In this document: positions 21,613-63,266 of the stretch, piece after piece
Layout: every line of letters starts with the position of its first letter
Position numbering within the stretch: position 1 is the first letter of the stretch
Program-made: the position numbers and the translations under genes
Source of the DNA: an uncultured Clostridia bacterium
GTDB lineage: Bacteria > Bacillota > Clostridia > TANB77 > CAG-508
Reading direction: 5' to 3'
DNA length: 64,000 nucleotides
Assembly (NCBI GenBank): GCA_947573445.1
Contig: CANPFR010000001.1
Coordinates: 86,984 to 150,983, forward strand
Notes under the pieces: model-generated
Seen by the model: the letters and a program-made list of their open reading frames with translations, nothing else
Told to the model about the DNA's origin: nothing
Databases searched by the model: none

Positions 21613-21688
21613 GCGCTATTAGCTCAGTTGGTAGAGCAGCAGACTCTTAATCTGATGGTCGGAGGTTCGACCCCTCTATGGCGCACCA
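21613..21688 (+). tRNA. tRNA-Lys (anticodon CUU), CCA encoded
   Basis: Folded by hand. Acceptor stem is 7 bp with one G-U, D stem is GCTC/GAGC, anticodon loop is CTCTTAA, T loop is TTCGACC, ending in CCA. Confidence 0.95.
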
Positions 21689-36079: not shown

Positions 36080-36108
36080 ATTTAAAACACCTCTTTTCAA
36101 AATATTAA

Positions 36109-37121: not shown

Positions 37122-38561
37122 TTATAATCTATTGTATAAATACTCCATATATTTATATATCTTATTATGCCACTCTGTGTCACTCGCATACCTTGTATTT
37201 ACACCTGCAACGGTTGGCCCGTTGTAATACGCTGCTTTAGCCACTTCTCCTTCATAAATTGGTGTGCCAGCTTCATTTATGTAATTTTTAACCAGAACTT
37301 TGGCAACCAACTCAATTCCTTCTGCATATGTTTCAAATGAATAGGAACTCGCATAAGGTGAACTATCATATGCACCATATCCAAATAAATTCTTCTTCTC
37401 TTTCGAAATCGTTGATGTTGCCCATCCACTTTCGTGAATTGCCATAGAAGCTAAAAATACACCATTCATGTTATAATTTTTATCCATATTATAAAACACT
37501 TCTGCATTTTCCTCTATCACACGATTTTTATCAGATGCATTGCCAGATAATATTCGTTTATAATCTTCTAGCGTCAAATCTGTAGAATGATTCAATGGCA
37601 TATTTTCCTCTACTGTCATTTTAATTCTTTGAACTCGATTAGCTTCGATGATACCTGGTGTAACTTTGCTAGTCGTTAAATCTTTGCATTTTACAAAACC
37701 TTCTAATCCATCATATTCAATTTTGCACCATTCTTCATCAGATAACTGTTCCAATGTAACATCCAAACTTTTAAAAATCTTGCAAATTTCAGTAGCAGAA
37801 TCATTGGCTTGATCCATTAATGAAACTTCTTTGGTAACATACATCGTATCTCCCAAATGAGCTTTATTTCTGCTTAAGAACTTTGATGTTCCTTTATCAA
37901 TTACTTGTGGTTGATATGGCTCTGTAACAATAGATTCTAAAATATCTTCTCCCACCAAAACATTATTTTCATAGGATTTGATTACTTTTACTTGTTGCTT
38001 TCCAGCTGTACCTTGTTTTGTTATTACTTCTTCACCTTCTGGCAAATTAGGATTTTCATTGTAGGTAATTTCAAATGGAACTGGACGTTCTTCTTCTATG
38101 TACTCTTTGGATTTTAACACACTAACATTTTCCATTAAAATTTCTTCTAGTTGTATAGCATTTTCGTTTTTTTCTAAAATAAGTTCTGCATTTTCTACTT
38201 GTCCACTTGGAGATTCTTCTTGCGGTTGATTTTCTACAGGTACATTATTTTCAGAATATTCTTCGTTTGCTATCGTTTGATTTTCAATTGTATTTTCAGA
38301 AATAGTTTTAGCAAAAATGCTAGTCGAAAAAATAAAGGTAAAAGCAACAATTGCAATTGTTACCATTACAATAATATGTTCTCCTTGTGCGATTTTCTTA
38401 AGCTTTTTATCTTTTATTGGATTTATTTTTTTACTAACAGCTCGTCTTCCTTTCGCTTTATGTCTCTCTGGCTTAGTCATTTCAATACGTTGGATATTTT
38501 CCAGATTATTTTTCATCTGTTCTAGATTTTGCTGCATTTTTTCAAAATCGTTTATTCTCAT
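37122..38561 (-). CDS. cell-wall hydrolase: TM anchor + G5 + SH3 + N-acetylglucosaminidase domains
   Basis: G5-like segment (ITKQGTAGKQQVKV...DKGT), an SH3-like segment, and the glucosaminidase motif LASMAIHESGWATS. Confidence 0.88.
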   Translation of the reverse strand: MRINDFEKMQQNLEQMKNNLENIQRIEMTKPERHKAKGRRAVSKKINPIKDKKLKKIAQGEHIIVMVTIAIVAFTFIFSTSIFAKTISENTIENQTIANEEYSENNVPVENQPQEESPSGQVENAELILEKNENAIQLEEILMENVSVLKSKEYIEEERPVPFEITYNENPNLPEGEEVITKQGTAGKQQVKVIKSYENNVLVGEDILESIVTEPYQPQVIDKGTSKFLSRNKAHLGDTMYVTKEVSLMDQANDSATEICKIFKSLDVTLEQLSDEEWCKIEYDGLEGFVKCKDLTTSKVTPGIIEANRVQRIKMTVEENMPLNHSTDLTLEDYKRILSGNASDKNRVIEENAEVFYNMDKNYNMNGVFLASMAIHESGWATSTISKEKKNLFGYGAYDSSPYASSYSFETYAEGIELVAKVLVKNYINEAGTPIYEGEVAKAAYYNGPTVAGVNTRYASDTEWHNKIYKYMEYLYNRL

Positions 38562-39833: not shown

Positions 39834-40299
39834 CTATTTTTTAACTTCTTTTTTACGTTCACGTAACTGTTTGAAAAATGTTTTGAGGATTGTCTCACAT
39901 TCATCTTTTAATATATATTGCTCAACTTCAATTTTATGATTAAATTTATATTCCAAAACATTCAAAAACGAACCAAAAGCCCCTGTTTTGTCATCTTGTG
40001 TTCCAATATATAATTTTCTGATTCTAGCATTGATTAAAGCTCCTGCACACATTGTGCATGGTTCTAAGGTAACATACATATCACAATCAGATAAGCGCCA
40101 TGCTCCTAGTTTTTTGCATGCTTTCTGGAGTGCCAAAATTTCAGCGTGACTGGTAGCATCACATTTTAGTTCTTTTATATTATGTGCCCTTGCAATAATT
40201 TTATTATCCTTTACAATGACAGCACCAACTGGTACTTCATCCTTTGCAAAGGCTTTTCCGTGCCTCTTTGAGTGCTTCTTTCATAAATTTTTCCTTCAT
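39834..40299 (-). pseudogene. tadA: tRNA-specific adenosine deaminase TadA with +1 frameshift
   Basis: ATG at 40299 gives MKEKFMKEALKEARK, then a stop. The next frame reads AFAKDEVPVGAVIV...SHAEILALQKAC...LEPCTMCAGAL, with the HAE and PCxxC motifs. There is an extra A in cggAAAAgcc at about 40254-40257. Confidence 0.88.
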
Positions 40300-40416
40300 A
40301 TTCCACCTTCTTATTATTTTATAGTTATATCATATTTTATTTTTTTTGACAAGCATCAAAAACAGCACTTACAAAAATTATCCTGTAAGTGCTGTTCTTC
40401 AAATTTTCGGAAGTTT

Positions 40417-41178
40417 TTAAGAAATTGGATATGCATGACTTGTCCAAATATATTGATCTGCAAATCGGTCATCTCCATAATAATCACGCGGAATTGCAAA
40501 ATACTGACGTGCCCCTGGAAGCTTAGCATAAATTAAATCTTCGCCCCAAGTTCCTGCCCCTGGATTCTCATCCATTTGATACAATACACATTCCTCAAGA
40601 CATGGAATCGTACCATCTATCAAGCCCTGTGCAACATACCAGGATTCTGGAGAAGCCTCTTTTCCAGATTCTACTGCCCTTTTCGTATTTGAGTGATATT
40701 GATATTTTTGATACAATACCTCATAAATTGAGTGGACATTACAAAAATCTGGATGATTTGTTTCTGCCCTATTAATAATGACTGAACCAACATAGATTCG
40801 ATCAGAAATCTTGTCTTCAGCTGTTTCTCCCGCTTCACACTCAATCATTATCGCAAGAACACCAACTTGTGAGGCATACTGCGGAAAACCTTTAATCACT
40901 GGCGTTATATTTCCTTTTCTTGTCAGATTCACAGAAGCAACCTTGGGTTTTTGAATTGTCTTTACCTCTTTTAAAACATTGTCTGGAACTTTTGGTAAAT
41001 CTATCGATTTAATCACCATTATAGGTTGTTTAGCCTGTAGTTCCTCCGCATTCATCATCAGGATTCCCAGCAACAATAAAATAGCTACTGATTCACACAG
41101 ATTTTTGTTTTGCCGTATAATCATTTGCAAATTTTCTTCTATCTGCTTAGTGGAAATCCCTTTGAAACTCTTTTTCAT
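40417..41178 (-). CDS. SleB/CwlJ-type cell-wall hydrolase
   Basis: N-terminal signal/TM segment, then LAIMIECEAGETAE...VGSVIINRAE...YQYHS, a hydrolase_2-like pattern. Confidence 0.78.
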   Translation of the reverse strand: MKKSFKGISTKQIEENLQMIIRQNKNLCESVAILLLLGILMMNAEELQAKQPIMVIKSIDLPKVPDNVLKEVKTIQKPKVASVNLTRKGNITPVIKGFPQYASQVGVLAIMIECEAGETAEDKISDRIYVGSVIINRAETNHPDFCNVHSIYEVLYQKYQYHSNTKRAVESGKEASPESWYVAQGLIDGTIPCLEECVLYQMDENPGAGTWGEDLIYAKLPGARQYFAIPRDYYGDDRFADQYIWTSHAYPIS

Positions 41179-41430: not shown

Positions 41431-41850
41431 TCAACCACTTTTATCCACATCTTTTAAATTATCATACATTTTTAACGCCTTACCATGTTGCACACACATA
41501 TACTTATAATTATAATTCATATGATTGGCCACTGTAACCAATGAATCTCCATTCACATATACTTCTGTCAAAATATTACGATACGGTTGTCCAATCTTAA
41601 GCAGAGCTCTATCAATCCTACTCAAATCCTGTTCCAACTTAATTGCAAAATTCAAAGCCTCAATTTTCATATCCAACAAAATCGCCAAACTCTCTGCCAT
41701 CTCATCCTGCACCCTCACACTCCCTTTCATTTTTGCCTGATACTTCACAATCATCCTTTGAACACTCTCATACTCATTCTCAATACTCTCTTTTCTAGCC
41801 TCAATCCATCTCTTATTTTCTTTATATTCCACCAAATCTTGTCGATTCAT
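41431..41850 (-). CDS. phage-type sigma-70 region-4-like regulator (DUF1492/RinA-like)
   Basis: N-terminal coiled segment (LVEYKENKRWIE...) and a C-terminal HTH (RNILTEVYVNGDSLVTVANHMNYNYKYMCVQHGKALK). Confidence 0.65.
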   Translation of the reverse strand: MNRQDLVEYKENKRWIEARKESIENEYESVQRMIVKYQAKMKGSVRVQDEMAESLAILLDMKIEALNFAIKLEQDLSRIDRALLKIGQPYRNILTEVYVNGDSLVTVANHMNYNYKYMCVQHGKALKMYDNLKDVDKSG

Positions 41851-48686: not shown

Positions 48687-48935
48687 CTATTTACTTTTGT
48701 TCTCAACTTTCAGTTCATCTATCTTTTTTAATAAATAACAAATATACAACAATGTAGTAACTACTATAGTGATGCCAATATAACATAAAATATCTGTTTT
48801 CTTTTGTAAATTATCATTTAAAACTATCATATGTCCACCAGCTGAATCCGTTCTTGCTGAATGTGAATAAGTGATTAGTGGAATAAATAATATTACAAAA
48901 ATTAATATAATTATTGTTTTTATTTCATTCTGCAT
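48687..48935 (-). CDS. moron gene 2: 82-aa two-TM protein with HSxRTDSxGGH motif
   Basis: N-terminal transmembrane segment, then YSHSARTDSAGGH, then a second transmembrane segment. AGGAGG RBS. Very low GC. Confidence 0.65.
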   Translation of the reverse strand: MQNEIKTIIILIFVILFIPLITYSHSARTDSAGGHMIVLNDNLQKKTDILCYIGITIVVTTLLYICYLLKKIDELKVENKSK

Positions 48936-48947
48936 TTATTAAACCTC

Positions 48948-49466
48948 CTAGAAAAAGTCTACCAAAACTTTTTCTACCAATACAAAACTCTCTTGAATAC
49001 ATATTTCATATTTTTTCATATCATTAGAAAAATTTGTATTATTTTTTTCATTTATTATATTTATCATTTCATCTAAAATTAAATTACATATTTTTTCAAA
49101 CTCAAAAAAATTAGTATATTCATAAGAATCATAAATATTTTCTATCATTTGATACGCTATATCGAAATATTCAGAAATTTCCTTGAAAAGATTTTTTTCA
49201 CTAATATGAAAACTCGAACTCACATCTTCCATAAAAGAAATTTTATAAGCTTTATAAAGCTTCTTATAAAAGAAGTGTCCTTTCTTTAGTTTTAAACAAT
49301 TTTGATGTATACGAGAAATAAAATAAGCTTTCATGTATGTTACCACAGACATATCATCAATATGATTTAACCTATCCATAATCTCTACAAGTAACTTATC
49401 ATTTGAATGACATATTAAAGTTACAAATTCAATTAAAGTTATTTTATTTTTCATTACTTTCCACAC
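48948..49466 (-). CDS. moron gene 1: hypothetical protein (~170 aa)
   Basis: Very AT-rich ORF. The start is ambiguous (GTG at 49466 or ATG at 49454). No motif recognised. Confidence 0.65.
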   Translation of the reverse strand: MWKVMKNKITLIEFVTLICHSNDKLLVEIMDRLNHIDDMSVVTYMKAYFISRIHQNCLKLKKGHFFYKKLYKAYKISFMEDVSSSFHISEKNLFKEISEYFDIAYQMIENIYDSYEYTNFFEFEKICNLILDEMINIINEKNNTNFSNDMKKYEICIQESFVLVEKVLVDFF

Positions 49467-49507
49467 TTTCTATCAAAAATATAATACTGTATTTGTAATA
49501 GAAAGCG

Positions 49508-49556
49508 TGTCGAAATTTGTCGTATTTCAAACAAAATTTATCGACAAAATTCGACA
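49508..49556. promoter_or_regulatory. 15-nt inverted repeat TGTCGAAATTTGTCG / CGACAAAATTCGACA (19-nt loop)
   Basis: 14 of 15 positions are complementary. It abuts the stop codon of the giant gene and precedes the moron. Confidence 0.5.
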
Positions 49557-52500
49557 TCACCATTCAAAACTACCATCCTTCATCTCTGTCTTTCCCTTTA
49601 AAGTCTTAACAATCTTCACTTGTTCAGAACTATCCAAAGATTTTATATAACTCAGCAACGTATTATAATTCGATTTTTCTGCATTCGTATTCAAATTATA
49701 TTCTGTAGCAAGCAAGTAAATCTTAGCCGTCTTATTCAGATTTAAACCATTAATCGTATTTACAATCTTTTCCTTCTTCGTACCACTAATTGTCTTTCCA
49801 CTCTTAGTTCCATCATCTTCTTTATCTGCCTCTCTATCCGATAGCATAAATTTCAAATAAGCATCAATACTATTTCCTTTATTCATACTTTTTAGAATCT
49901 CATATTTATTTTTATTACTTTCACTAGCAATTACATTCACATACAAAGCTTCTGTCTGTTCTTTACTATATTTACTATCCACCAGCAACTGTGTCTTTTC
50001 AGAACTATCCAAAGACTGTCCTTCTTCTTTTTCTCCACTCGCCTTTAATTCTGCCAACTTCTCATTTGCCTTTACCTTATAATCCAAATATTGATTTATA
50101 ATTTCCTCAGCCTTATAATTCTTACCACCAACACGAGAATTATCCTTATAATACTCCTTCAATTCTTCATATTCACTCTTCTTATCCTCTGATTTGCTCA
50201 TAATATAATTACTATATATTTCATCCTTCTCTTTACTCGAATAATTAGAACTTTGCAATATTTGCATCTTCTCAATCGAACTCAACTGAGCTCCTTCTTT
50301 TCCAGTACTATTTCTTTTTGCTAATGTAGCCTCTTGCGTTTTATTTTTATAATCCGCATAAGTATCAAGCGAAAGATTTCCCATCTTCTCTTTCTCTCCA
50401 TCTGACATCACTTTCCATTCACCATCAACCTTATAATACTCTTCTCCACCTAAGCTTGCTGAATCACCACTTATCTTCATCTCCTCCAAATCATTCAAGG
50501 TTTTTTTCACCTTTTCATTAATTTGTGCCTGCAACTCTTTTGATTGCTTCTTTTTCTCGCTATCTGGCAAATCAGAACTTTGTACATCTCTTTTCTTCGC
50601 ATACAATTCTCCAATCTCTTTCGAGCCACTACTCAAATATTTATAAACAATCTTATCTGTATCACTTGCAAACTCACTATTATTCAACAATTCACTATTT
50701 TGTAACTCTGTATAAAAAACTTCCACATTTTTATTCTTAAGTACTGAATCCGTTATGAACTTATCACTGATTATATTATTTTCTGCATACGGCGTAGCCA
50801 TTGGTAACAAAACATCACCAACTCCTCCTGAATATTGATCCAGCACATAATTAATCTTCTTTGGACTAATCCCTAATTTATCTGCAATATATTTTGTAAT
50901 ATCATTACTCTGCAATACTTCTGAAATTTTATTGCTCAACTCATCCGTCTTCTCATCCGTTCGTTCTGCAACTGGCAATTTTTGTAATCTAGTACCTTCA
51001 ATCTCTCCACCATACCAAGCTTCATTTCTTTTTGCTTGCACAACTGGAGCAATTAAATTTTCTTTAAAAGGATTATTGGGTGCTAGATTATCTACAACCC
51101 CACTAACTGAATTTTTTGCTGTCTCTAATAAATCTTGCTCACCTTGTATATACTCTGTAAAATTTCTGCCAATTATTCCTAATGTTGCAACAACTCTTCC
51201 TTTTGGAATACGATAAAACTCGCCATCCTTTCCTTTCGGAAACAAATAATAACTATCCTTAATATAATCTGGCAAATCCTCATAATACTCCTCATCATCG
51301 CTACCACTAAGCAATAAATGATTCAAAACTGAAGGAGCCACTCCCAAAACAGTCGCCCTCGTTATCAAATTAGCATACCCCTTCACGCCATTCTGCCCTG
51401 TTATATTTCGAATTTGTTTATCCAAACCTTGCACACTCGCATTCAAAAAATTAGCACCATATCGATTAAAAATCTTTGTAATCTCTCCACCACGTTTAAA
51501 ATTCGTCGTAATTTCAGCACCATTATACAAAGCCTCACTCTTTGTTCCACCATTTTCAAGAGTTGTTATATACTCTGCGAGCCTTGGAGCCTGTTCCAAA
51601 ATTTCATTGAAACTTTTAATTTTATCAACCACTTTTTGAACCTTGCTTCGATTCGGCAAAACACCACCTTCATAATCAAAATAAGTATTACTATTTCCAC
51701 CATTACGAATATAATCCTTGTAAATTTCACCTTTCGTGCCTAACTGATACAATGATTTCACGTAATTTTTAGCAAACTCTGAAACACTATATTTCGTGTT
51801 AAAAATAGCATCCTGTATATCCTTAATCGGATTATTAAAAGAAAAACCAATCGAATATGTTGTCAGTAAATCTCTTTGTGCCTTTGATAACTTTTCAACT
51901 GGTGCCAGCAAAGCATTCGCCAACTTATCATTTCGAATACGATTAGACAACGTATCCTTTTGAAAAGCAGTATACAAATCATCACTAATCTTAAACTGTG
52001 TCATCTGTCCATCCTCAAAAATCACAAACGTATTCATACCATCCTGTGCCTTTTGAATCACATCTCCTGCCAAACTTTGAATAGCTCCTGCATCAAAATC
52101 AATACCATCAAACACTTTACTGTCTTTTCCTAAAGTTTTATACAGTTCTACACCCAATTCATTCATACGAATTGCTTTCTTAATCGCCAATGTTTGCTCT
52201 GCCATTGCCTCTTTAGGATCCAATATTTTTTGATCACCACCAGTTGCTCTTCCTAGCACATTACTACCAACAGAATTATCATCAAATATCACTTTTTCAT
52301 CAATAATATCTCGATATGTCGGAATATAATCTCCATACAAAGAACGTAATCGATTAAACATATCTTGGCTAAGCATTCCAGTATCCACCATATCTTGTAG
52401 ATTGTTTTCATTATATTTACTTACTTTTTGACTCCATTCTTTAAACTCTGGATGTTTTGTCTCATAATCTGCCACAATTCTGCTACTTTGTGGAGCAGAA

Positions 52501-55500
52501 ACTTCATCCCCATATAAACTTTTACCAGCTACAATTCTTGCTATATTGTGTTTATTCAACAAATAATCACCAAACTCTTTTTCTAAGCCTGCCTCTTCTG
52601 CTCCTTCAAATATTTGTTTCAATGATTCTCCAACTACTTCACCTTTTGAATTTACTTGTTCCTCTCCAATCGAATATTGTGCTTCATTAAAAGCATTCAT
52701 CGTTCTATCATATTTATAAGTCAGTTCTTTATTTCCAGTCTTGTTTGCTAATTTATCCATATAATGTCCTTTATTAACAAACTTTTGCATAAAACTATCC
52801 AGTAATTCTCCTGAAGAAGCTTTGTGCTTTCGTCTTTTGCTGGAAATATATCTCATCGTATCTGGTAATTCACCTGTTTCTGCCATTTCATCTATTTGTT
52901 CTGTAGAGATGTCTTTTCCCATATTATCTGTTGCTAGTTTGAAAGCTCGAACGTTTTCATCTTCATAAATTAATGGATTAGTTTGAAGTTCTGTTTTATT
53001 TAAAGTTATTTCTTTTGTTTTAGTATAATCTATATTTCTATAATTAAATCTTGTAATTGCTGTAGGATCCTCAATTGAAATAATATTTCCATCTTTATCA
53101 ATTTCATAATCAATATGTTCACTATCCAAATAATCAAATAATTCATTATTTCCTTGCAAAGAAAAAGAACTCTCGTTCGAGTTCTCTATCTTTCCACTAT
53201 TTCCTTTGTTTTCAACATAACTTGTCTGTTCGTTGCTGTTGGATGTTCTTTTAGAAACTCCAACATCTCCTTCTGTTGTTCCTCTGTTTTGAGATTGGTC
53301 ATCGAGGTCATACAAGCGTCCTCTACTACTCCCGCTTCTCTCATTAGTCTCAATACTTCCTTTACTAGTGGTGTTACTTCCATCATTTTCATCAATCCTC
53401 TCATTCAAAATATTAATTTCTGTATTATCCTTAGTTACTCCTACATTCTCCCAACTTTCAACCAACTTAACTGGAACATTTTCTATTCCCAATTCATTTG
53501 CAATTTGTAATCTATGATTTCCATTTTCTATTCCATACGTTCCATCGTTTTTTCTATAAATTTCAATCGGCTCTGTAATTCCATTTTCTTGAATACTTCT
53601 TCTTAAATCTAAAATTTGCTCATTGGTTCTATATCCGCCTCCATTATATAATGACATCAACTCTTTCGTGAAAATATTCTTTCTTTCACCTAATTTCAGA
53701 TTATTATATCCTATTTCCTGACTATTTGCAAGGCTATTTTTTTCATTTAGAACTTGCATTTTATTTTCATTTTGTGGTATAATAGTATTAGAAAGATTCG
53801 TATCACTGCTCGTTTCGGACGTTGTGTTTAGGGTTTCTACATTAGACGCAGTGACAGAATCTATTTTTTTATCATTTTTAAATTTATACATAGTTTGTAA
53901 TTCTAAATTTTTATGCTTATCTGACGTATACGTAATTACAACATTATTGCCATTAATATTCTTTTCAAATTTTATAGAAGGTTTTCCTTGTTTACTCTTC
54001 CCTGACAATTCGATATTGTCTGGATTATTTATTATATCAGGTATATTTTGAAAATCTTCTGATGTTAATGCAACTTGCCCTCTAGCATTTTCCACATCTA
54101 CATTTGAATGCTTTTTAATAGTATGTCTAATACTATCTGCACTTAAAGAAATATTGTAATTATTTACATCAATTCCTAATCTAGATTTTATTGTATCAGC
54201 AATATTTTGTTTTACTTTTCCTAAATACATCTTAAAATTATTAGGAACACTCCTTGATTGTTGAACAAAATTACTAATATCTTGTTTGCTTTCTGCAATT
54301 TTTATCTTATCACTTTTGATATTTTGTATTTCTTTTTGCGAATATCCGTTAAATTCATTAACCTTTTCAATATCTTGCTCCATATTTGCATTTTGAGTAA
54401 TTTTATTTTCTTGTTCAGTAATTTTTTCATTGTTCTGTAAAACTTCGTTATCTTGCAATCTCATACCTTCATTTTGTAAAATCTGCTCTGACACATCTTG
54501 CATTTTATTATCTAACTGTTTATTTGTATTCAATTCTCTTTGCAATTCATTTACTGAAGAATTTTTATCAATAAACAAATTAGACGTTTCCCCATTTTGT
54601 TTTTTAATCATAATATTATTATGATTACTCTCAACTCCATATCTATTAGCAAGCATATTAGCAATTTGATTTTCTTCTTGTCTATTGCGTTTTACCAATT
54701 CATCTTTTCTGTTTTCTTGTAACTTTGTTTCCTTTATCTCCTCTATATTATTTTTATTATTCAATTCTTGCTGTTTTACTTCCTTATAAGTGTTTCCTCC
54801 CAATCCTAAAGCATTCAAAGTAAGCGTCGTCCAAAAAGTATCAGAACTTGTTTGTTTCGCATCATTAATCACATCTTGCAAGGTTATTCCCTTTTGATTA
54901 ATCACATAATCAATCAAATACCCTGCCATATTCTCTAAATTCTCTTCCGCAATTTCTCCACCAAATTCATACACCTTACTTGCCAACCATTTCTTACCAT
55001 TACTTAATGTCGACTGTGCTAACTTATTTCTTACAATATCATCAACACTACCTTTACTAATAATATTACCACCAGTAAGTCTCTCTGTAGCCATACTAAC
55101 ACCGCCCTTAGCAATACCTGTAAAAAATGCTTTTAATTGATTGTCTTGGTTTTCATTCAGTGTATTTAAATATTCAGATGACATGACGCCCATTCCTTGT
55201 ACTGCATTAGGTAGTATTCCTGCACCACCAGTTAAAATACCTGTTGCAATAGAAGGAGCCATATTACCAATTGCTCCTGACACATTTCCAGCTGTTCTAA
55301 CAACACTATTATCAATCATCGAATTTCTTTCCTGATATCCTTTTGCTAAAAACTTACCAGTATTCACTAAATTTTCCCTATCTCTCGTCTGTGGGTTTAA
55401 ACTAGCCAACATTGTACCAGTATTTACAACACTATTCATAGCCTCATTAGGAACACCACTTAATACATGACCAATAGCAGAACTGTACCTTCCATTTTTC

Positions 55501-55979
55501 ACATCTTCATTAATTTTATTTGCCTTTTTCATATTCTCATTAGTACGCCTTAAGCTATCTATTTTTGTATTTATTTTCCCTTTTTCATTGTTTCCTACTG
55601 GTAATGAACCAATCATCCTACTAGAATCCTTTTTATCCATTTGTGACAGTTGTCCTACTTGTTTTTCTGTTAAATCAAATGTATTTTTTGATTTCATCAA
55701 TGGATTTTCAACTGATGCCAATATTCTATTCTCATTAACTCCCAATATACTCTTTACAACCGAATTTGTATTTACTGGAGCAATCCTTCTTCCAGCAGAC
55801 TGCATCACATCCGCCATCGATGCATTTCTATTTACTGTTAAATTATTTCTTGCTTGAACGTCACTTGCAATATTCGTATTCACTTCTCTCTTAGCATTGT
55901 TTGAAACTGGTGCAACCTGCATACTCCAATTTTCTCTATAATTTTTATCCTTTTTTATTTTGCTCAAATCAATTCCCAT
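49557..55979 (-). CDS. giant (2140 aa) polyvalent-type virion protein with ParB-like and PBECR-like modules
   Basis: Uninterrupted 6.4-kb ORF with an RBS. Contains the ParB-like motif ITEPIEIYRKNDGTYGIENGNHRLQIANELGIENVP (aa ~800-837), a SADSIRHTIKKHSN... module (aa ~570-705) and a Gly-rich hydrophobic segment (aa ~225-300). Confidence 0.85.
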   Translation of the reverse strand: MGIDLSKIKKDKNYRENWSMQVAPVSNNAKREVNTNIASDVQARNNLTVNRNASMADVMQSAGRRIAPVNTNSVVKSILGVNENRILASVENPLMKSKNTFDLTEKQVGQLSQMDKKDSSRMIGSLPVGNNEKGKINTKIDSLRRTNENMKKANKINEDVKNGRYSSAIGHVLSGVPNEAMNSVVNTGTMLASLNPQTRDRENLVNTGKFLAKGYQERNSMIDNSVVRTAGNVSGAIGNMAPSIATGILTGGAGILPNAVQGMGVMSSEYLNTLNENQDNQLKAFFTGIAKGGVSMATERLTGGNIISKGSVDDIVRNKLAQSTLSNGKKWLASKVYEFGGEIAEENLENMAGYLIDYVINQKGITLQDVINDAKQTSSDTFWTTLTLNALGLGGNTYKEVKQQELNNKNNIEEIKETKLQENRKDELVKRNRQEENQIANMLANRYGVESNHNNIMIKKQNGETSNLFIDKNSSVNELQRELNTNKQLDNKMQDVSEQILQNEGMRLQDNEVLQNNEKITEQENKITQNANMEQDIEKVNEFNGYSQKEIQNIKSDKIKIAESKQDISNFVQQSRSVPNNFKMYLGKVKQNIADTIKSRLGIDVNNYNISLSADSIRHTIKKHSNVDVENARGQVALTSEDFQNIPDIINNPDNIELSGKSKQGKPSIKFEKNINGNNVVITYTSDKHKNLELQTMYKFKNDKKIDSVTASNVETLNTTSETSSDTNLSNTIIPQNENKMQVLNEKNSLANSQEIGYNNLKLGERKNIFTKELMSLYNGGGYRTNEQILDLRRSIQENGITEPIEIYRKNDGTYGIENGNHRLQIANELGIENVPVKLVESWENVGVTKDNTEINILNERIDENDGSNTTSKGSIETNERSGSSRGRLYDLDDQSQNRGTTEGDVGVSKRTSNSNEQTSYVENKGNSGKIENSNESSFSLQGNNELFDYLDSEHIDYEIDKDGNIISIEDPTAITRFNYRNIDYTKTKEITLNKTELQTNPLIYEDENVRAFKLATDNMGKDISTEQIDEMAETGELPDTMRYISSKRRKHKASSGELLDSFMQKFVNKGHYMDKLANKTGNKELTYKYDRTMNAFNEAQYSIGEEQVNSKGEVVGESLKQIFEGAEEAGLEKEFGDYLLNKHNIARIVAGKSLYGDEVSAPQSSRIVADYETKHPEFKEWSQKVSKYNENNLQDMVDTGMLSQDMFNRLRSLYGDYIPTYRDIIDEKVIFDDNSVGSNVLGRATGGDQKILDPKEAMAEQTLAIKKAIRMNELGVELYKTLGKDSKVFDGIDFDAGAIQSLAGDVIQKAQDGMNTFVIFEDGQMTQFKISDDLYTAFQKDTLSNRIRNDKLANALLAPVEKLSKAQRDLLTTYSIGFSFNNPIKDIQDAIFNTKYSVSEFAKNYVKSLYQLGTKGEIYKDYIRNGGNSNTYFDYEGGVLPNRSKVQKVVDKIKSFNEILEQAPRLAEYITTLENGGTKSEALYNGAEITTNFKRGGEITKIFNRYGANFLNASVQGLDKQIRNITGQNGVKGYANLITRATVLGVAPSVLNHLLLSGSDDEEYYEDLPDYIKDSYYLFPKGKDGEFYRIPKGRVVATLGIIGRNFTEYIQGEQDLLETAKNSVSGVVDNLAPNNPFKENLIAPVVQAKRNEAWYGGEIEGTRLQKLPVAERTDEKTDELSNKISEVLQSNDITKYIADKLGISPKKINYVLDQYSGGVGDVLLPMATPYAENNIISDKFITDSVLKNKNVEVFYTELQNSELLNNSEFASDTDKIVYKYLSSGSKEIGELYAKKRDVQSSDLPDSEKKKQSKELQAQINEKVKKTLNDLEEMKISGDSASLGGEEYYKVDGEWKVMSDGEKEKMGNLSLDTYADYKNKTQEATLAKRNSTGKEGAQLSSIEKMQILQSSNYSSKEKDEIYSNYIMSKSEDKKSEYEELKEYYKDNSRVGGKNYKAEEIINQYLDYKVKANEKLAELKASGEKEEGQSLDSSEKTQLLVDSKYSKEQTEALYVNVIASESNKNKYEILKSMNKGNSIDAYLKFMLSDREADKEDDGTKSGKTISGTKKEKIVNTINGLNLNKTAKIYLLATEYNLNTNAEKSNYNTLLSYIKSLDSSEQVKIVKTLKGKTEMKDGSFEW

Positions 55980-55997: not shown

Positions 55998-57026
55998 TTA
56001 GGTAGCTTTTATTCTCTTTACCCACTTTTCAAGCTCTTGCTGTTTTACCTCATTAGAATCGTTTGGATTTACATTTAATGTATATAGCTTTCCATTCACT
56101 TCTCCCTTATAAATTCCATTACCAATATCAGATATCTTAACTCCATCATACACATATCCGTCATTCTCCGTATTAATCTTCGAAGAAGTTCCAGAACTAG
56201 ACTTACCATCCGAAAAATTCGAACCCTTCGAACTCCTAGAACTCTTCGAACCTCCAGAACCCTTACTACTACTCGCCCTCTTCGACAACTCATACTGAGC
56301 CTTCCATTGATTATCCGCCACAGCATCCCTCTCCTTCTGATATGCCATCGACTCATTATACTGCCTAATCTGTTCAGCCAATGCATTCTCCGTATTAATC
56401 TGATTCACAACATCCTGATACCTCTGATAATAACGATCCCCCACATCAAGCTCCGTATTCAACTCATTCATCAGCAACGAATTTTTATACTGAAACCCCT
56501 CCAAAGCAAGTTCCAACTGTTTCTGAAGAGAATTAAATGCAATCTCTGCTAAACTACTGCTATTCGCAAGTTCTGCCTGCGTAATCTGATTATTATAGCT
56601 CTGCACCGCTTGATGATACGTCTCTTTCGCCACAGCATATCGATTTTGGTAAGTATTATACATACTCACCCTAGAACTTTCACTATACCCAGAACCACTC
56701 AAACCAGCAGATGCCATTTGCTCACTATTCACACCATATGCATTTGTCTGTTTTGCATAATCCGCATAAGAAGCTTTCTGTTCTTTTAAATAATCCCTTT
56801 CATCCTGTTCCTTATTTTGATTAATCTCCTCAATCATCTGATCCGTTCTAGCCTGTTGCAACTCACTTTGCTTTTGCTCATAACTTTGAGTCGCCTGTTT
56901 CAAATCATTATAATACGAATCAGCACCATTAATCATACCATTATAAGTATCATTCACCTTCCCCATTGTAGCTTCTTTTTCAGCTTGAACCTGTGCAAAA
57001 CGTTCATCATTGTAATCAATTGCCAT
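55998..57026 (-). CDS. phage structural/internal protein, Q/N/S-rich (342 aa)
   Basis: Coiled Q/N-rich body, an SSSKGSGGSKSSRSSKGS low-complexity run, and a small C-terminal beta domain. Confidence 0.7.
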   Translation of the reverse strand: MAIDYNDERFAQVQAEKEATMGKVNDTYNGMINGADSYYNDLKQATQSYEQKQSELQQARTDQMIEEINQNKEQDERDYLKEQKASYADYAKQTNAYGVNSEQMASAGLSGSGYSESSRVSMYNTYQNRYAVAKETYHQAVQSYNNQITQAELANSSSLAEIAFNSLQKQLELALEGFQYKNSLLMNELNTELDVGDRYYQRYQDVVNQINTENALAEQIRQYNESMAYQKERDAVADNQWKAQYELSKRASSSKGSGGSKSSRSSKGSNFSDGKSSSGTSSKINTENDGYVYDGVKISDIGNGIYKGEVNGKLYTLNVNPNDSNEVKQQELEKWVKRIKAT

Positions 57027-57037
57027 TCCATTCCCTC

Positions 57038-58747
57038 CTATCTCTTCACCACATTACCAATATACGCCTCCAACGTACAACTATATAAAACAAACGGTAA
57101 ATCCGACCAAAACTTAACCTGTATACTCTTAAACTTCTTCGCCTTAATTCTAGGTTTAAAATACCCCTTCGTACTTGTGCTATACGTTCCAATCTTAATA
57201 AAATCTTCATTATCCTTTCTCATAGACAACATTATTTTCTCTCCCTCACAATCTACTACAGTCCCTTTTTTATTCGTCGTTTTCCACATCTGGGGATATC
57301 TCATTTCATCTGCCATTGTACAAAAATAACTTTCAATTTTCCTACTTCCCTTATCATCTGTCAAAGTATATACTTTATTATCACTACACAAATAAAGCAC
57401 TCCAGCCTTCACAAAAGTAGCACTTATACTCTCTTCCATCTCCCAATAAAACCACTCATATTCAATATGGTCATTCAAAGTATGTTTACCTCTTGAATCT
57501 GCTAAATAAACTTTATTATCAATACAAACTAATAAATAACCTTCCCATTCTTCCAGCAACATATTTTTATAATTCACTTCATTCAACAAACAATTATCAA
57601 TCAACGAACTCCTATGACAAATCACCTGTTCTGTCGTCACATCTCCTGAAACACTCTCCATACCACGTGAACTAAAAAACACAATATCATCATTAAAATT
57701 AATACCCTTACCCACACAACCAGTCGAAATACTAGAATGCGTAGACGGATAAATCTTCCCATAATCACTTTCAACACCAGGATTATGATAATAAATCGTC
57801 GTATTACTTTGACTTGGCTCCTTCATCACCCACAAAGCATTATTACCAGCAACAATCGCCTTAATCGCCGAATCATCTGTCCCCTCCGTATAATAATCCA
57901 AATCACTACAATAACTTGGGTCATCTAACGAGCAATGCCACAACATATTCGGGTATTTTGGATTTCCAGCAAAAAACACCCTATTATCAAAAACCTGCAC
58001 CAACATGCAACCTTCAATCCTCTCACGATACCCTTTTATCACCTTTTGAAACTGTACAATTATATTATCCTGTCCATCCGTCTCAGGCTTACTTGGAGCT
58101 ACAGCAAACTCAATATAACCTTTGTCCGCATGCACCGTAAAACCACTTTTCAACTCTGTTCCATTTACCCAAACCCTGACCCCATAATCATCATCAAAAC
58201 ACTCCACATCTAAATAATACTCTCTACTCATACCATCACTACAAAACTGATTTTTCCTAAGTCCTGTCAATAAATTTACATCTTCATATACTTTACCATT
58301 ACCAGCAGCACTCTTACTAATCGTCGTAGTAGGAACATAACCTTCTACCTCTTTTACTTCCCTACCATCATATACAAGATACTTCTTACCATCTAAAATA
58401 TACAGCAACGAATTATAAATAAAAAACACACTTCTATTCTGAAACATGTCCTCATAAATCACATTTCCATTATCATATAGTTTATTTCCACTATGTATTA
58501 CCATGTTATTATTAAAAAAATAAATCCCATAAATTTTATCTTCATATTCTTTCATTAGTTCAGTACAAGGTCTTGACTCAACACATAAGCCATTACTCCC
58601 TTTATAATTTTTCCACATATTCAAAGCATCTGGAGAACGATATAATGAAATCTCATCTTTGCGATTACTAAAATCAACCCCCCTAAAATCAGCATACTCT
58701 CGAAAAATCAAACTGCCACTTGCACCACTACTCAAAGTAGAACTCAT
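57038..58747 (-). CDS. phage structural protein, beta-repeat rich (569 aa)
   Basis: Recurrent ...NKVY..D... strand motifs suggest a propeller or tail-hub type protein. Function is not assigned. Confidence 0.7.
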   Translation of the reverse strand: MSSTLSSGASGSLIFREYADFRGVDFSNRKDEISLYRSPDALNMWKNYKGSNGLCVESRPCTELMKEYEDKIYGIYFFNNNMVIHSGNKLYDNGNVIYEDMFQNRSVFFIYNSLLYILDGKKYLVYDGREVKEVEGYVPTTTISKSAAGNGKVYEDVNLLTGLRKNQFCSDGMSREYYLDVECFDDDYGVRVWVNGTELKSGFTVHADKGYIEFAVAPSKPETDGQDNIIVQFQKVIKGYRERIEGCMLVQVFDNRVFFAGNPKYPNMLWHCSLDDPSYCSDLDYYTEGTDDSAIKAIVAGNNALWVMKEPSQSNTTIYYHNPGVESDYGKIYPSTHSSISTGCVGKGINFNDDIVFFSSRGMESVSGDVTTEQVICHRSSLIDNCLLNEVNYKNMLLEEWEGYLLVCIDNKVYLADSRGKHTLNDHIEYEWFYWEMEESISATFVKAGVLYLCSDNKVYTLTDDKGSRKIESYFCTMADEMRYPQMWKTTNKKGTVVDCEGEKIMLSMRKDNEDFIKIGTYSTSTKGYFKPRIKAKKFKSIQVKFWSDLPFVLYSCTLEAYIGNVVKR

Positions 58748-59301
58748 ACCTCTATTCCTCCATCTATAAACAAACTTCCCATACTCCTTCTTGGATCCAA
58801 TCTTTGTAACATTTGTTCATATCTCTCTGCATACAATCTACCGTAATTTGCCGAAACATCCGCCTTCAATAAATCTCCAGCCACACCATAAACCATAATC
58901 TCCAGGCACTCTTTATCTAATTCAAATACATAATCATCATCCGTTTCCTCATCAATCTGCACAGGATACTTATAATAAAAAATTTGAGCCAATCCCTCTG
59001 ACTCAAAAATAACCTTATTACCCAAAACAGTTGACTCAACCCCACGAATCATATTCACTTGATAAATCCTTCTATCAATATCCGTAATATTTATTATTCT
59101 TTCATTCTCTTCATCTTCAAATACAACATCTATCCTAATATATCCATCAATCTTTTTCAGTCTTGCTACTTCGTTCATAATACTATTAATCACACTATTC
59201 ATTTTACTCGACAAATCTTGATCCTCTGTCAAATCCTCAGCCTCTTCATTATATTCCTCAATTAATTCATACACCTTCGCCTTAAACTCTTCTAAAGTCA
59301 T
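58744..59301 (-). CDS. phage head-tail joining region protein (185 aa)
   Basis: Assigned by position downstream of the capsid gene and a 4-nt overlap with the next gene. No motif recognised. Confidence 0.6.
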   Translation of the reverse strand: MTLEEFKAKVYELIEEYNEEAEDLTEDQDLSSKMNSVINSIMNEVARLKKIDGYIRIDVVFEDEENERIINITDIDRRIYQVNMIRGVESTVLGNKVIFESEGLAQIFYYKYPVQIDEETDDDYVFELDKECLEIMVYGVAGDLLKADVSANYGRLYAERYEQMLQRLDPRRSMGSLFIDGGIEV

Positions 59302-59302
59302 C

Positions 59303-59620
59303 TCACTCCTCCTTGTCTAAATCTTTTATGCACTCCAAATCTTCCAATGCTTCCGAAATCCTTACATATCGATCAACTGGTACCACATAGCCCCTATTCT
59401 CATTCTCAAACAAAACAACCATACCCTCTTTCAAGTAAATTATTGTTTTCGTTTCACTTTCAAAATTTTCTGCTTTCCTCTTCTCTACCTGCACAAACTT
59501 CAAATCACTCAATTCTTGTTTTATTCTTCCATCTTCACTTTCAAACTTCAATTTCGTTTCCTTATCTACCTTCACACCTGCATATAATGTAACATCTGGT
59601 ATTTTCATATATCTATTCAT
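59303..59620 (-). CDS. phage hypothetical protein (105 aa)
   Basis: GGGAGGAA RBS, immediately after the capsid-gene hairpin. Confidence 0.6.
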   Translation of the reverse strand: MNRYMKIPDVTLYAGVKVDKETKLKFESEDGRIKQELSDLKFVQVEKRKAENFESETKTIIYLKEGMVVLFENENRGYVVPVDRYVRISEALEDLECIKDLDKEE

Positions 59621-59708: not shown

Positions 59709-60545
59709 TTAAGACGCTTTTGTTGTTCTGGCCACAGCTGTTGAATTTGTAATTTTTAATACTTGGATTCTATCATTATCAATCACCTTTGCACCAAACG
59801 TATCCAAACCTCTCACAATATCCTTAAACCTCTTCTCAGCCCTCAATGCTTCCACCTCATTAATCTGTCCAGCAAAAGCAATCGCCTTCTTACCACGAAT
59901 ATCACAATAAGTAAAACTTCCATCATTCTTCATATTATTACTCATAATCACATCAAAATCATCATAAACCCCAACTTTACCCTTCTTAATATATTCTGGG
60001 TTATCCGTCGATAAAGTAATCAATTGTTTTTTAAACTTATTATAAACCTTTGGCGTAATTTCAATCACACCATCCTCATCAAAATTTCTTTCACGAAGAG
60101 CCACAATCCCTTCATCAACACCATCTACAATTGCTTGTTCTGTCATACTAGTTATCTCTGTCACATTTGTACCAGTAGAAATCAACTCTGCTACATAACT
60201 ATCCCTCGCCACAGCCAAACCATGTACCGCTTTCTCTTGATATTTCTCCTTTAATCCTGGAACAGATTGTGCCTGATTAATATCATCCACATAAAAAGCA
60301 AAATAATTTGCTTGGTCAATTATCAAAACTTGACCCTTATCAGACATCTCCTCAATATCAATATCTTTTGAACCATCATATGCTCCTATCGTAGGCTCTC
60401 CAACCCCCAATATCTTTACAGATTGTGCATACTTACAATCTCCCTCATAATCACGTAAACAATTATCCACCAATTTACATTTAAGCTCCAAATCATCTTG
60501 GATTTTCTTACTCCAAATCGTTTGAATAAAATTTGTTACAGCCAT
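59709..60545 (-). CDS. major capsid protein (P22-coat-like family)
   Basis: N-terminal FIQTIWSKKIQDDLE...DNCLRDYEGD...SVKILG pattern, typical of this capsid family. Follows the scaffold gene and has a hairpin downstream. Confidence 0.85.
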   Translation of the reverse strand: MAVTNFIQTIWSKKIQDDLELKCKLVDNCLRDYEGDCKYAQSVKILGVGEPTIGAYDGSKDIDIEEMSDKGQVLIIDQANYFAFYVDDINQAQSVPGLKEKYQEKAVHGLAVARDSYVAELISTGTNVTEITSMTEQAIVDGVDEGIVALRERNFDEDGVIEITPKVYNKFKKQLITLSTDNPEYIKKGKVGVYDDFDVIMSNNMKNDGSFTYCDIRGKKAIAFAGQINEVEALRAEKRFKDIVRGLDTFGAKVIDNDRIQVLKITNSTAVARTTKAS

Positions 60546-61553: not shown

Positions 61554-63266
61554 TTAGTTTTCTTCTATATCCTGTTCTTGTGGTTGTTGCTGAGCTTGTG
61601 AAATTTGACTTGCCTGTGTTTCCACATCACCATTTAAAAATTGACTTGCCCTATGTTGCATCATTTGAGCTTTAGCCTTAATCATTGCAATTTTTCTCTG
61701 TTCCTCTTCTTGTTTCTCTACAATCTCTAATAGTTTCTGTTTTGGCATTGTACTATCATCTGGCAAAGCCTCCAAATACAACTTTAATTGCGGAAGCATT
61801 TCAGGTGAAAAATAACCACCCTTCAATAAATTCTCTAAAGATAATTCTTGAGCATATCGATCAAAAGCACTTTTTGGCGTAATATCTACCTTAACAGTCC
61901 CTTGTAGCTCACTCATAACACTCTCTGGTACTGTAATTAACTGTGTATATTCTTCTCCTGTTTGTGGGTCTGTTTCTGTATCTTCCAACACCATTCCATC
62001 TGGTGTATAAACAACCCACATATCAAGCCAAATTCTTGCTAAATCTTCAATGCTACTCTTAAGTCCACTTAACTGTTTATTCATCGGTTGCTTACTTGCA
62101 TTCTGTATTGCCAGAATTGCCTTACCAGATGCTTTCTCTGGATCAGCTCCACCTGTCACCACATCAGAAGCATTTTTTAGTTCTCTTGTAATATTAATCA
62201 AATTCTGGATTAATGTTTGCACATCACCACTCATCTGTGCTGGTTGAACATAACCGAACACTTTTTTTACATCATCTACTGTCTGATCATTCGTTTTTAT
62301 GATACCACCAACCTGTTTTACTGCACTTTGATTTTGTATTTTACTTATATTTACAATTTTTTGTGGATACGCATTTTGTTTTATCGACAACAAACTTCTA
62401 GCAAGTGTCTTATTTAGCTCAATCTGATTTGGGATTAAATATCTTACCTCTCCTTCACCTCTACTATTGCCTTTTTTACTCTTCCAGTTAAAATGCGTTA
62501 AAGGATAATAATGTAATCCTGTATCAGTATCTTCTTTTATTTCCACATACTTAACCGCTTTCGCATAATGGAGAGTTCCATTTTCCATCCATAACTTCGT
62601 AATTAAAGTACACATTTCTTCTTTTTCATATTTACTATCCTCGCCAGCCTCTTCAAAATTATCTTTATCCGCATAAATAAAAGAGATTTTCTCTTCACTT
62701 ATTCCCTTTTCTCTCGCCATCTTCTCAATTTCAATATAGGACTTTCTTTGTTTTATGATAATATATGGTTGACTTTGAATATCTGAATTGTTTTCATTTC
62801 CATATTGCACATCATTTTTTGATAAAATTTCATTGACTGGATTTTGTTTTTCAGTATCATAATCCACATAAATAATTCCCTCATCATTTACTGCCGAATC
62901 TGTCGAAAACTCTCTAATCTTATCATCCATATTATCCTTTTCCCATACTTTTGAAGCTTTTTTGTTTAATAATTCACATGTTTTCTCAGCTGTCCTTCGA
63001 AACTCTCTATTCTCAAAATTCTCACTCGAATAATTAATTCCCCATAAATTGCTATTAATCGTACTCACCTTATGATCCACAATCGTCTCAATAAAATTAA
63101 ACTGTGCCTGCTCAATCCCCTCAATCTTAGCACCTTCCCATTGATTACCATTATAAAAACGATAATTCTTATCCGTATCCGAAAACACATTCCTCATACG
63201 CATAAAATTTCTGCCCTTTTCATATAGTTTCCAAATATCAGTTTCCCTTAGTTCTTTTAAATCCAC
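61554..63266 (-). CDS. portal protein
   Basis: 570 aa, immediately downstream of terminase. NYRFYNGNQWEG motif near the N-terminus and an acidic C-terminus. Confidence 0.85.
   Translation of the reverse strand: MDLKELRETDIWKLYEKGRNFMRMRNVFSDTDKNYRFYNGNQWEGAKIEGIEQAQFNFIETIVDHKVSTINSNLWGINYSSENFENREFRRTAEKTCELLNKKASKVWEKDNMDDKIREFSTDSAVNDEGIIYVDYDTEKQNPVNEILSKNDVQYGNENNSDIQSQPYIIIKQRKSYIEIEKMAREKGISEEKISFIYADKDNFEEAGEDSKYEKEEMCTLITKLWMENGTLHYAKAVKYVEIKEDTDTGLHYYPLTHFNWKSKKGNSRGEGEVRYLIPNQIELNKTLARSLLSIKQNAYPQKIVNISKIQNQSAVKQVGGIIKTNDQTVDDVKKVFGYVQPAQMSGDVQTLIQNLINITRELKNASDVVTGGADPEKASGKAILAIQNASKQPMNKQLSGLKSSIEDLARIWLDMWVVYTPDGMVLEDTETDPQTGEEYTQLITVPESVMSELQGTVKVDITPKSAFDRYAQELSLENLLKGGYFSPEMLPQLKLYLEALPDDSTMPKQKLLEIVEKQEEEQRKIAMIKAKAQMMQHRASQFLNGDVETQASQISQAQQQPQEQDIEEN

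Follow-up and report, generated by a model that had tools for sequence, protein, structure and literature searches.

Polyvalent proteins were defined by Iyer et al. 2017 (J Bacteriol, PMC5512222), who reported the LPD38 domain only in the phage type of these proteins. Of all phage weapons, polyvalent proteins are considered to be the earliest to arrive in the host cytoplasm, and almost none has been studied experimentally. Here we describe a giant gene of this class that resides on the minus strand of a prophage in an uncultured Clostridia bacterium, within a stretch of 64,000 nucleotides (GenBank assembly GCA_947573445.1, contig CANPFR010000001.1, positions 86,984 to 150,983) that is hereafter called the window. 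We consider it probable, at roughly 0.6, that its product is a polyvalent protein which is expressed late and packaged in the virion of a temperate, podovirus-like phage infecting a Clostridia host with low guanine-plus-cytosine (GC) content, and that this protein combines a role in ejection with the delivery of effectors.

Three giant proteins of isolated short-tailed phages provide the closest comparisons. The LPD38-bearing gp47 (vb_24B_48) of the Stx podophage phi24B is abundant in the virion proteome, is absent from the cryo-electron microscopy map, and has been proposed to be an encapsidated ejection protein (bioRxiv 10.64898/2026.04.10.717836). The 2198-aa polyvalent protein gp25 of PTXU04, an E. 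coli podovirus of ~60 kb, is essential as judged by CRISPRi-ART (PMC11879866). The third is gp20 of phage Page from Bacillus megaterium, for which transmission electron microscopy (TEM) shows podophage morphology (PMC3990757). Like the window protein, all three are giant single polypeptides encoded among virion genes, share a homologous C-terminal superdomain of ~800 aa, and carry variable N-terminal parts with effector-type domains. The differences lie in the remainder of the protein and in the host. The phi24B protein carries LPD5, LPD1 and MuF-C as cargo, whereas the window protein carries PBECR3 and ParB_N; profile searches did not detect the N-terminal module or the repeat tail of the window protein in phi24B or Page, and a BLAST comparison with isolated phages gives a match only in the superdomain region (aa 1177-1832). 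Moreover, the host in the window is a low-GC, Clostridia-type Gram-positive bacterium, whereas the comparison phages infect a proteobacterium or Bacillus.

Other described systems share some of these attributes. Prophages phi1 and phi4 of Clostridium clostridioforme LM41 are ~41 kb long, lack a tape measure and a sheath, form podovirus-like particles by TEM, and carry at their 3ʹ end an 8-kb open reading frame (ORF) that occupies ~20% of the genome (Microbiology 2024, PMC11318856). They are thus podovirus-like prophages of gut Clostridia with a giant ORF that resembles large polyvalent protein-associated domains, although the reported similarity is to LPD3 and the likeness to the window protein is one of description only. 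The P1 proteins DdrB and DarB, which are virion-packaged antirestriction proteins, and jhp1044 of a Helicobacter prophage, in which PBECR is joined to a DdrB-like ParB domain, place ParB-superfamily and PBECR domains in late or virion-associated phage proteins. Unlike these, the window protein has a putative ParB domain of the canonical type, no self-processing metallopeptidase and an LPD38 chassis. Finally, T7 gp14/gp15/gp16, P22 gp7/gp16/gp20 and the N4 virion RNA polymerase, the last of which Iyer et al. classed as a polyvalent protein (PMC5512222), are stored in the capsid and expelled at infection. These are functional analogies only: when the whole giant protein was compared with the sequences of solved structures, only weak ParB matches and chance matches were obtained, and no similarity to the T7 or P22 ejectosomes was found.

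The window protein does not represent a new kind of system; the class, the phage context and the likely virion location are already in the literature. It is of use chiefly as a well-delimited case for experimental work on LPD38-type proteins in phages of Gram-positive gut bacteria.

The LPD38 superdomain and the other conserved regions

The giant gene is an intact ORF that begins with ATG and encodes 2140 aa followed by a stop codon, in agreement with the start, strand and length of the single 6.4-kb ORF described in the original prediction, which had been made from the sequence without database searches. At the AT-rich base composition of the window, the chance of an open frame of 2140 codons is ~1e-87. 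A plausible ribosome-binding site (AAGGGA) is located ~7 nt 5ʹ of the ATG, and the start lies 18 nt past the stop of the preceding gene. Directly 3ʹ of the giant-gene stop is a hairpin of ~14 stem pairs that none of 200 shuffled sequences equalled in folding; the U-tract that follows is weak, and the structure is probably a terminator or a transcript stabiliser.

From 5.8 billion proteins searched we obtained 60 homologues, which are 1356-3363 aa long, and pairwise mapping of these homologues resolved four regions: an N-terminal module (hereafter the N-module), a variable middle, a large module at aa ~1040-1870, and a tail. The large module, which is 20-78% identical among homologues, includes the Pfam LPD38 domain (PF18857; E 1.3e-31, 110.6 bits versus a cut-off of 27), and we refer to it as the LPD38 superdomain. 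Its motifs are APRLAEY, TTNFKRGG, NFLNASVQG, DDEEYYEDLPDYIKDSYY, FYRIPKGR, APNNP and SPKKINYVLDQYSGG, and a moderately hydrophobic helix is located at aa 1534-1556.

To model the superdomain with AlphaFold2, we aligned aa 1040-1870 and 17 homologous segments (A1). The model is mostly helical, with a mean predicted local distance difference test (pLDDT) score of 74 and a predicted template modelling (pTM) score of 0.71. Compared with predicted viral structures, this model gives 71 matches at E < 1e-3, usually at a template modelling (TM) score of about 0.7, and all 71 correspond to the C-terminal portion of a phage 'large polyvalent protein associated domain' protein. It superposes on the C-terminal part of PTXU04 gp25 with a TM score of 0.70 (E 7e-22). 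The superdomain profile likewise matches the 2807-aa giant protein of phi24B at aa 1903-2802 (E 9e-93) and gp20 of Page (E 1e-86).

When the A1 profile was searched against 1.84 billion cluster representatives, 25,483 matches were obtained at E <= 1e-3 and 17,308 at E <= 1e-30. The best 150 matches contain the entire module of ~820 positions near the C-terminus of proteins that range from 1082 to 3422 aa. The same placement is seen throughout a set of 182 proteins, in which the superdomain is always near the C-terminus, preceded by a median of 1352 aa and followed by a median of 177 aa. Given these matches, the Pfam LPD38 model (189 positions) is the core of a far larger and very common unit of ~830 aa. 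Minimal members of the family (P0075, P0150 and P0169; 1082-1225 aa) comprise the superdomain, a tail of ~140-190 aa and little more, which suggests that the superdomain with its tail is an autonomous core and that N-terminal cargo is optional.

The N-module holds an invariant acidic motif, GGEIAEENLEN (aa 340-350), and occurs in about half of the homologues (29 of 60, at 27-79% identity). An alignment of aa 60-450 with 16 homologues (A3) provided both a profile, which matches 79 of 208 proteins examined, and an AlphaFold2 model, which is all-helical. The profile has no match among PDB sequences, and the model yields only weak matches to predicted viral structures (all E >= 0.01), the best of which (E 0.01-0.4) are N-terminal chunks of other giant phage polyvalent proteins. 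Within the N-module lies the Gly/Ala-rich segment GNVSGAIGNMAPSIATGILTGGAGILPNAVQGMGVM. The five parts and the motifs that had been discerned by eye are found where they had been placed, except that this segment, which had been called hydrophobic, is only moderately so (Kyte-Doolittle 19-residue mean ~1.0).

Between the conserved regions are two compositionally biased linkers. The first, rich in Lys, Glu, Asn and Gln, is poorly conserved among homologues. In the second, which had been recognised earlier as S/N/G/E-rich, Ser, Asn, Glu, Asp and Gly account for 64 of 106 residues. The C-terminal tail is common even to relatives that lack the LPD38 superdomain. Of the degenerate ~55-aa repeats proposed for this end of the protein, two clear copies stand (aa 1894-1948 and 1985-2037, with a spacing of ~90 aa), as their alignment score of 101 compares with a maximum of 57 in 2000 shuffled comparisons; the alignment of a third copy is not significant.

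Cargo cassettes and their exchange

The region between the N-module and the superdomain carries two domains of effector type. The module that had been likened by eye to PBECR nucleases is matched by Pfam PBECR3 (PF18812) with E 3.2e-23 and 82.3 bits versus a cut-off of 30, over profile positions 2-113 of 115, and this match includes SADSIRHTIKKHSN at aa 613-626. In an alignment of the window segment with five PBECR3-bearing relatives, His624, Arg633-Gly-Gln, Ser685 and Gln695-Thr-Met are invariant in all six sequences. PBECR domains have an active-site pattern of His plus Ser/Thr (PMC5512222), which the invariant His624 and Ser685 fit, and the segment is predicted to be an RNase.

The second cassette contains the sequence IENGNHRLQIA (aa 817-827), with the motif GNHR at aa 820-823, and corresponds to the ParB/sulfiredoxin-type motif noted previously. 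PHROG families of ParB-like nucleases match the giant protein with a best value of 2e-7. In addition, a profile built from the window segment and four orthologous segments from relatives was searched against PDB sequences, and it matches solved chains of ParB, Noc, Spo0J, SbnI and sulfiredoxin at E 2e-7 to 8e-4, aligning GNHR with the GERR box of ParB. Membership of this putative domain in the ParB/sulfiredoxin superfamily is well supported by these profile matches.

Other searches of the giant protein were less productive. Pfam yielded no peptidase, MuF, RNA polymerase, lysozyme or lytic transglycosylase domain, and NCBIfam gave no match. Self-cleavage into separate effectors is not predicted because no peptidase domain is present. 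PHROGs gave matches to two further families, both of giant proteins of unknown function. The profile searches that had been proposed as a check (ParBc, PBECR, LPD and MuF families) thus place PBECR3 and LPD38 above their cut-offs and ParB_N just below, with MuF unmatched. In structural comparison, which had also been proposed, the superdomain matches phage polyvalent proteins but no PDB entry, and the N-module matches are weak.

Among relatives, the middle region is occupied by a diverse set of families, including ART-PolyVal, MuF_C, LPD3, LPD23, LPD1, LPD5, SprT-like, RadC, Pol-beta nucleotidyltransferase, GNAT acetyltransferases, DdrB-ParB, PBECR1, ParB and PBECR3; MuF_C or SprT-like domains occur in some of these proteins. 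The closest relative (P0002) is 70-78% identical in its flanks and carries an unrelated segment of ~210 aa (aa ~710-923, containing YHEVLESDILH) in place of ParB. At the level of sequence comparison, this protein is a direct example of cassette replacement.

The full combination of N-module, PBECR3, ParB, superdomain and tail was found by local profile searches in only one of 208 family members, namely the window protein itself, and subsets of this combination recur among the 208. The exact cargo combination appears to be unreported among the relatives examined, yet it is a product of combinatorial cassette exchange, a process already described. The suggestion that the combination may be undescribed holds to the extent that it is unseen in 207 other relatives. 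However, the novelty is smaller than first thought, because the family of the C-terminal module exceeds 25,000 clusters and comparable ORFs have been published (PMC11318856). A scan of GTDB genomes with the giant protein recovered one 3-kb contig, from an uncultured Eubacteriales metagenome-assembled genome, with 84% identity, and a scan of IMG/VR revealed no close relative.

The broader proposal that the architecture is that of a polyvalent protein is supported. At least two unrelated effector-type or LPD domains (PBECR3, ParB_N and LPD38) are present in one polypeptide, the gene is located in a prophage between capsid or virion-protein genes and fibre or lysis genes, the mosaic architecture varies between orthologues (60 to 208 relatives), and homology to tape measures is lacking in Pfam, in PHROGs and in the fold search. 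The window protein exemplifies, for a prophage of a Gram-positive gut bacterium, the fixed succession of N-module, cargo, superdomain and tail. Of practical value is that both its predicted PBECR3 RNase and its small ParB-type domain are cleanly delimited.

Gene setting, proposed function and competing explanations

The minus-strand block that contains the giant gene encodes, in order, a terminase fragment, the portal, a scaffold, the major capsid protein, two small proteins, a 569-aa protein, a 342-aa protein and the giant protein. Past the giant gene, small ORFs are followed by two fibre-like proteins, which have collagen or fibre motifs at their N-termini, and then by a holin-like protein and an amidase. 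The portal is 27% identical to that of Page (E 6e-50) and 37% identical to that of a metagenomic relative, locus L004, whose portal carries PF16510 (P22_portal) and which is collinear with the window over 11 genes. A 185-aa protein of the window is a homologue of Page gp12, and homologues of the 569-aa protein exist in Page, where gp15 is annotated as 'virion structural protein', and in relatives of Page. The C-terminal part of the giant protein matches Page gp20, a 1679-aa hypothetical protein encoded by the last structural gene before the holin. Because four proteins have homologues in this TEM-verified podophage and the L004 portal is of the P22 type, the prophage is, by protein homology, podovirus-like. 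Head and tail modules differ in affinity, with the capsid toward mycobacteriophage Che8 and the portal and virion proteins toward podophages.

The 342-aa protein, encoded directly upstream of the giant gene, has weak homologues in the same position in L004 (34% identity) and in another locus, L002 (27% identity, LysM-bearing), and may be a conserved partner of the giant protein. Family searches in the remainder of the block found little: ten neighbouring ORFs have no Pfam match at E <= 0.01, and neither the portal nor the 569-aa protein has a match in NCBIfam. The ORFs between the capsid and lysis genes have no match to tail-tube, sheath, chaperone or tape-measure families in Pfam or PHROGs. 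The original prediction had likewise recognised no tail-tube, sheath or chaperone genes, and this observation stands, including for positions 55998-59620. Its description of the giant gene as sitting where a tape measure would normally sit was a misframing, as a podovirus-like structural module is not expected to contain a tape measure and the giant protein is better likened to the internal or ejection proteins of podoviruses.

In the model that we propose, the N-module, the LPD38 superdomain and the repeat tail form the conserved chassis, and the exchangeable cargo is strung on flexible linkers after the N-module and before the superdomain. The cargo in this instance would be a metal-independent PBECR3 endoRNase and a ParB/sulfiredoxin-type domain that may bind nucleoside triphosphates or nick nucleic acid. 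The giant gene shares position, strand and close spacing with the structural genes, with which it would be transcribed late. A few copies of the protein would then be built into the capsid by means of the chassis, as homology to the virion-associated phi24B protein suggests. On infection, the protein might exit by way of the portal and the short tail, either together with the DNA or before it, and the chassis may help to build or extend a conduit across the cell envelope; both of these steps are speculative. The ready-made RNase and ParB domains would thereby act in the cytoplasm before phage gene expression, on host or defence RNAs, DNA or nucleotides, as family membership and the conserved catalytic residues suggest. 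The swapping of cassettes between close relatives would reflect an arms race with host defences.

Several observations weigh against this proposal. The presence of the giant protein in the virion is deduced here from genes, and we infer packaging and ejection of the window protein itself from its homology to the phi24B protein. For PTXU04, the four virion bands identified by peptide fingerprinting do not include gp25, although proteomics of four bands is uninformative with regard to gp25 packaging. No zincin-like metallopeptidase or MuF hub is matched in Pfam at E <= 1, and a portal-fusion domain is also absent. In polyvalent proteins, packaging or processing usually centres on MuF, portal-fusion or metallopeptidase domains, of which the MuF and metallopeptidase domains are frequent but not obligatory. 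As a single sequence, the ParB segment scores below the gathering cut-off of Pfam ParB_N (PF02195; aa 786-838, E 5e-5, 23.7 bits versus 26.3), and the DdrB-like ParB family that is typical of polyvalent proteins (PF18763) gives no Pfam match at E <= 1. The N-module model is of moderate confidence (pLDDT 66), and the 'hydrophobic' segments fall under the usual Kyte-Doolittle cut-off for transmembrane segments. A comparison of the superdomain model with PDB folds, among them the solved podovirus ejection proteins, gave a best E of 1.1; because the superdomain lacks a structural match in the PDB, and with hydrophobic stretches that are weak, a conduit-forming role is offered purely as speculation. 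Moreover, the window covers only part of the prophage, and the nearest solved relative of the capsid, gp6 of mycobacteriophage Che8 (major capsid protein; PDB 8E16, E 7e-21), comes from a mycobacteriophage, so that capsid likeness does not by itself indicate tail type.

The Che8-like capsid also belongs to the case for a very different explanation, in which the phage is long-tailed, the giant protein stands in for its tape-measure or tail-length protein, and its tube and chaperone genes have diverged beyond recognition. Like many tape measures, the gene is very long, lies downstream of head genes and encodes a helix-rich protein with Gly/Ala-rich hydrophobic stretches, and many neighbouring ORFs lack any family match. 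However, no chaperone-frameshift, tube or sheath gene was matched among the late ORFs scanned, Pfam and PHROGs give no tape-measure match, and in the fold search with the N-module tape measures scored no better than noise (E >= 0.9, probability <= 0.16). Podophage Page encodes counterparts of four window proteins (portal, 185-aa protein, 569-aa protein and giant protein), the superdomain is common to podophages phi24B and PTXU04, and the portal of a syntenic relative is of the P22 type. We therefore reject the tape-measure explanation as highly improbable. It is less far-fetched, though still quite unlikely, that the giant protein is made late and never packaged, functioning in the cytoplasm of the producing cell, where it might mediate superinfection exclusion, take part in conflict between phages or act on the nucleic acids of the phage itself. 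ParB and BECR domains are known from non-virion conflict systems as well (PMC5512222), the strong hairpin at the gene end could permit separate regulation, and the protein, which is known from its sequence alone, lacks a MuF or portal-binding domain. An unpackaged protein is harder to square with a gene that is embedded among co-oriented virion structural genes at a gap of 18 nt, and with the abundance of the homologous phi24B protein in purified virions.

The remaining alternative accepts packaging and ejection and differs on the purpose of the cassettes, which would serve the entry of the phage genome, such that the protein is mainly an ejection machine rather than a carrier of anti-defence effectors. 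ParB might clamp or nick the incoming phage DNA, and PBECR3 might process early phage transcripts in the manner of T4 RegB. The chassis is indeed the conserved part, the homologous PTXU04 gene is essential, the best alignments of the ParB domain are with canonical ParB/Noc N-domains and not with DdrB-like ones, and Iyer et al. name as options that phage mRNAs are acted upon or early replication is assisted (PMC5512222). However, close relatives with 60-78% identical chassis carry wholly different cargo, and many relatives carry ADP-ribosyltransferases and acetyltransferases instead. Such turnover is hard to reconcile with housekeeping at genome entry and is typical of conflict effectors, and we judge the genome-entry role to be unlikely. 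The ejection and effector function that we prefer could also be carried further, to a very widespread single-polypeptide ejectosome of short-tailed phages in which the superdomain, N-module and tail are anchored in the capsid, form or lengthen the DNA conduit across the envelope and act as a universal carrier of swappable effectors. We hold this extension to be possible but somewhat doubtful; if it were true, the prophage would be a Gram-positive example in which a canonical-type ParB has been recruited as injected cargo.

Feature coordinates and flanking genes

Table 1. Features of the giant gene and of neighbouring genes, in positions of the window; aa ranges refer to the giant protein.
Feature	Position	Strand	Basis
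Giant gene, polyvalent protein of 2140 aa, 240 kDa, isoelectric point 5.4	49557..55979	-	ORF call, translation
N-module, conserved, all-helical, aa ~90-430	54690..55712	-	homologue mapping, A3 profile, AlphaFold2 model
Gly/Ala-rich, moderately hydrophobic segment within N-module, aa 231-266	55182..55289	-	composition
Lys/Glu/Asn/Gln-rich linker, aa ~431-560	54300..54689	-	composition
PBECR3 cassette, predicted RNase, aa 588-705	53865..54218	-	Pfam PF18812
ParB/sulfiredoxin-type N-terminal domain cassette, aa ~764-845	53445..53690	-	Pfam, PHROG, profile search
Ser/Asn/Gly/Asp/Glu-rich low-complexity linker, aa ~860-965	53085..53402	-	composition
LPD38 superdomain, conserved, mostly helical, ~830 aa, aa 1040-1870	50370..52862	-	homologue alignment, AlphaFold2, profile
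Pfam LPD38 core, aa 1564-1729	50793..51290	-	PF18857
C-terminal tail with two ~55-aa repeats, aa ~1880-2140	49560..50342	-	homologue mapping, repeat alignment
Hairpin, probable transcript end or stabiliser	49497..49556	-	-20.9 kcal/mol, z -4.7
Partner gene, 342 aa: coiled-coil, Ser/Gly-rich linker, small C-terminal domain	55998..57026	-	directly upstream of giant gene
Virion structural protein, 569 aa, Page gp15 homologue	57038..58747	-	26% identity, 93% coverage
Major capsid protein, HK97-type	59709..60545	-	phrog_267, E 4e-28
Portal protein, podovirus type	61554..63266	-	phrog_156

Just 3ʹ of the giant gene, positions 48687-49466 on the minus strand encode proteins of 172 aa and 82 aa, the latter hydrophobic. 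This is the stretch of lowest GC content in the late region (27.8%). Neither ORF has a PHROG match at E <= 0.001 or a tblastn match in L004, the 172-aa ORF has no Pfam match at E <= 0.01, and the pair may represent a moron insertion.

Beyond the holin-amidase cassette is a gene for a 253-aa protein (40417-41178, minus strand) with a SleB/CwlJ-type cell wall hydrolase domain (Pfam Hydrolase_2, E 4.5e-6), which is the leftmost ORF on the putative prophage side, and a phrog_36-type transcriptional regulator is encoded at 41431-41850. These two genes could be of phage or of host origin. Within ~300 bp of the hydrolase gene lies a tadA-like tRNA adenosine deaminase gene (39834-40300, minus strand) that appears frameshifted: from an ATG at ~40298 the frame reads MKEKFMKEALKEARKSLCKG and then a stop, and the deaminase frame (GKAFAKDEVPVGAVIV...HAE...PC..C) is taken up in a different frame at an A-run near 40262. 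A sequencing error would account for this arrangement, as would decay to a pseudogene. Positions 1-40000 of the window look like host chromosome, with a GC content of ~30%, and include genes for DNA polymerase III tau/gamma (34517-36100) and a G5-glucosaminidase (37122-38561), together with a single tRNA-Lys(CTT) at 21613-21688.

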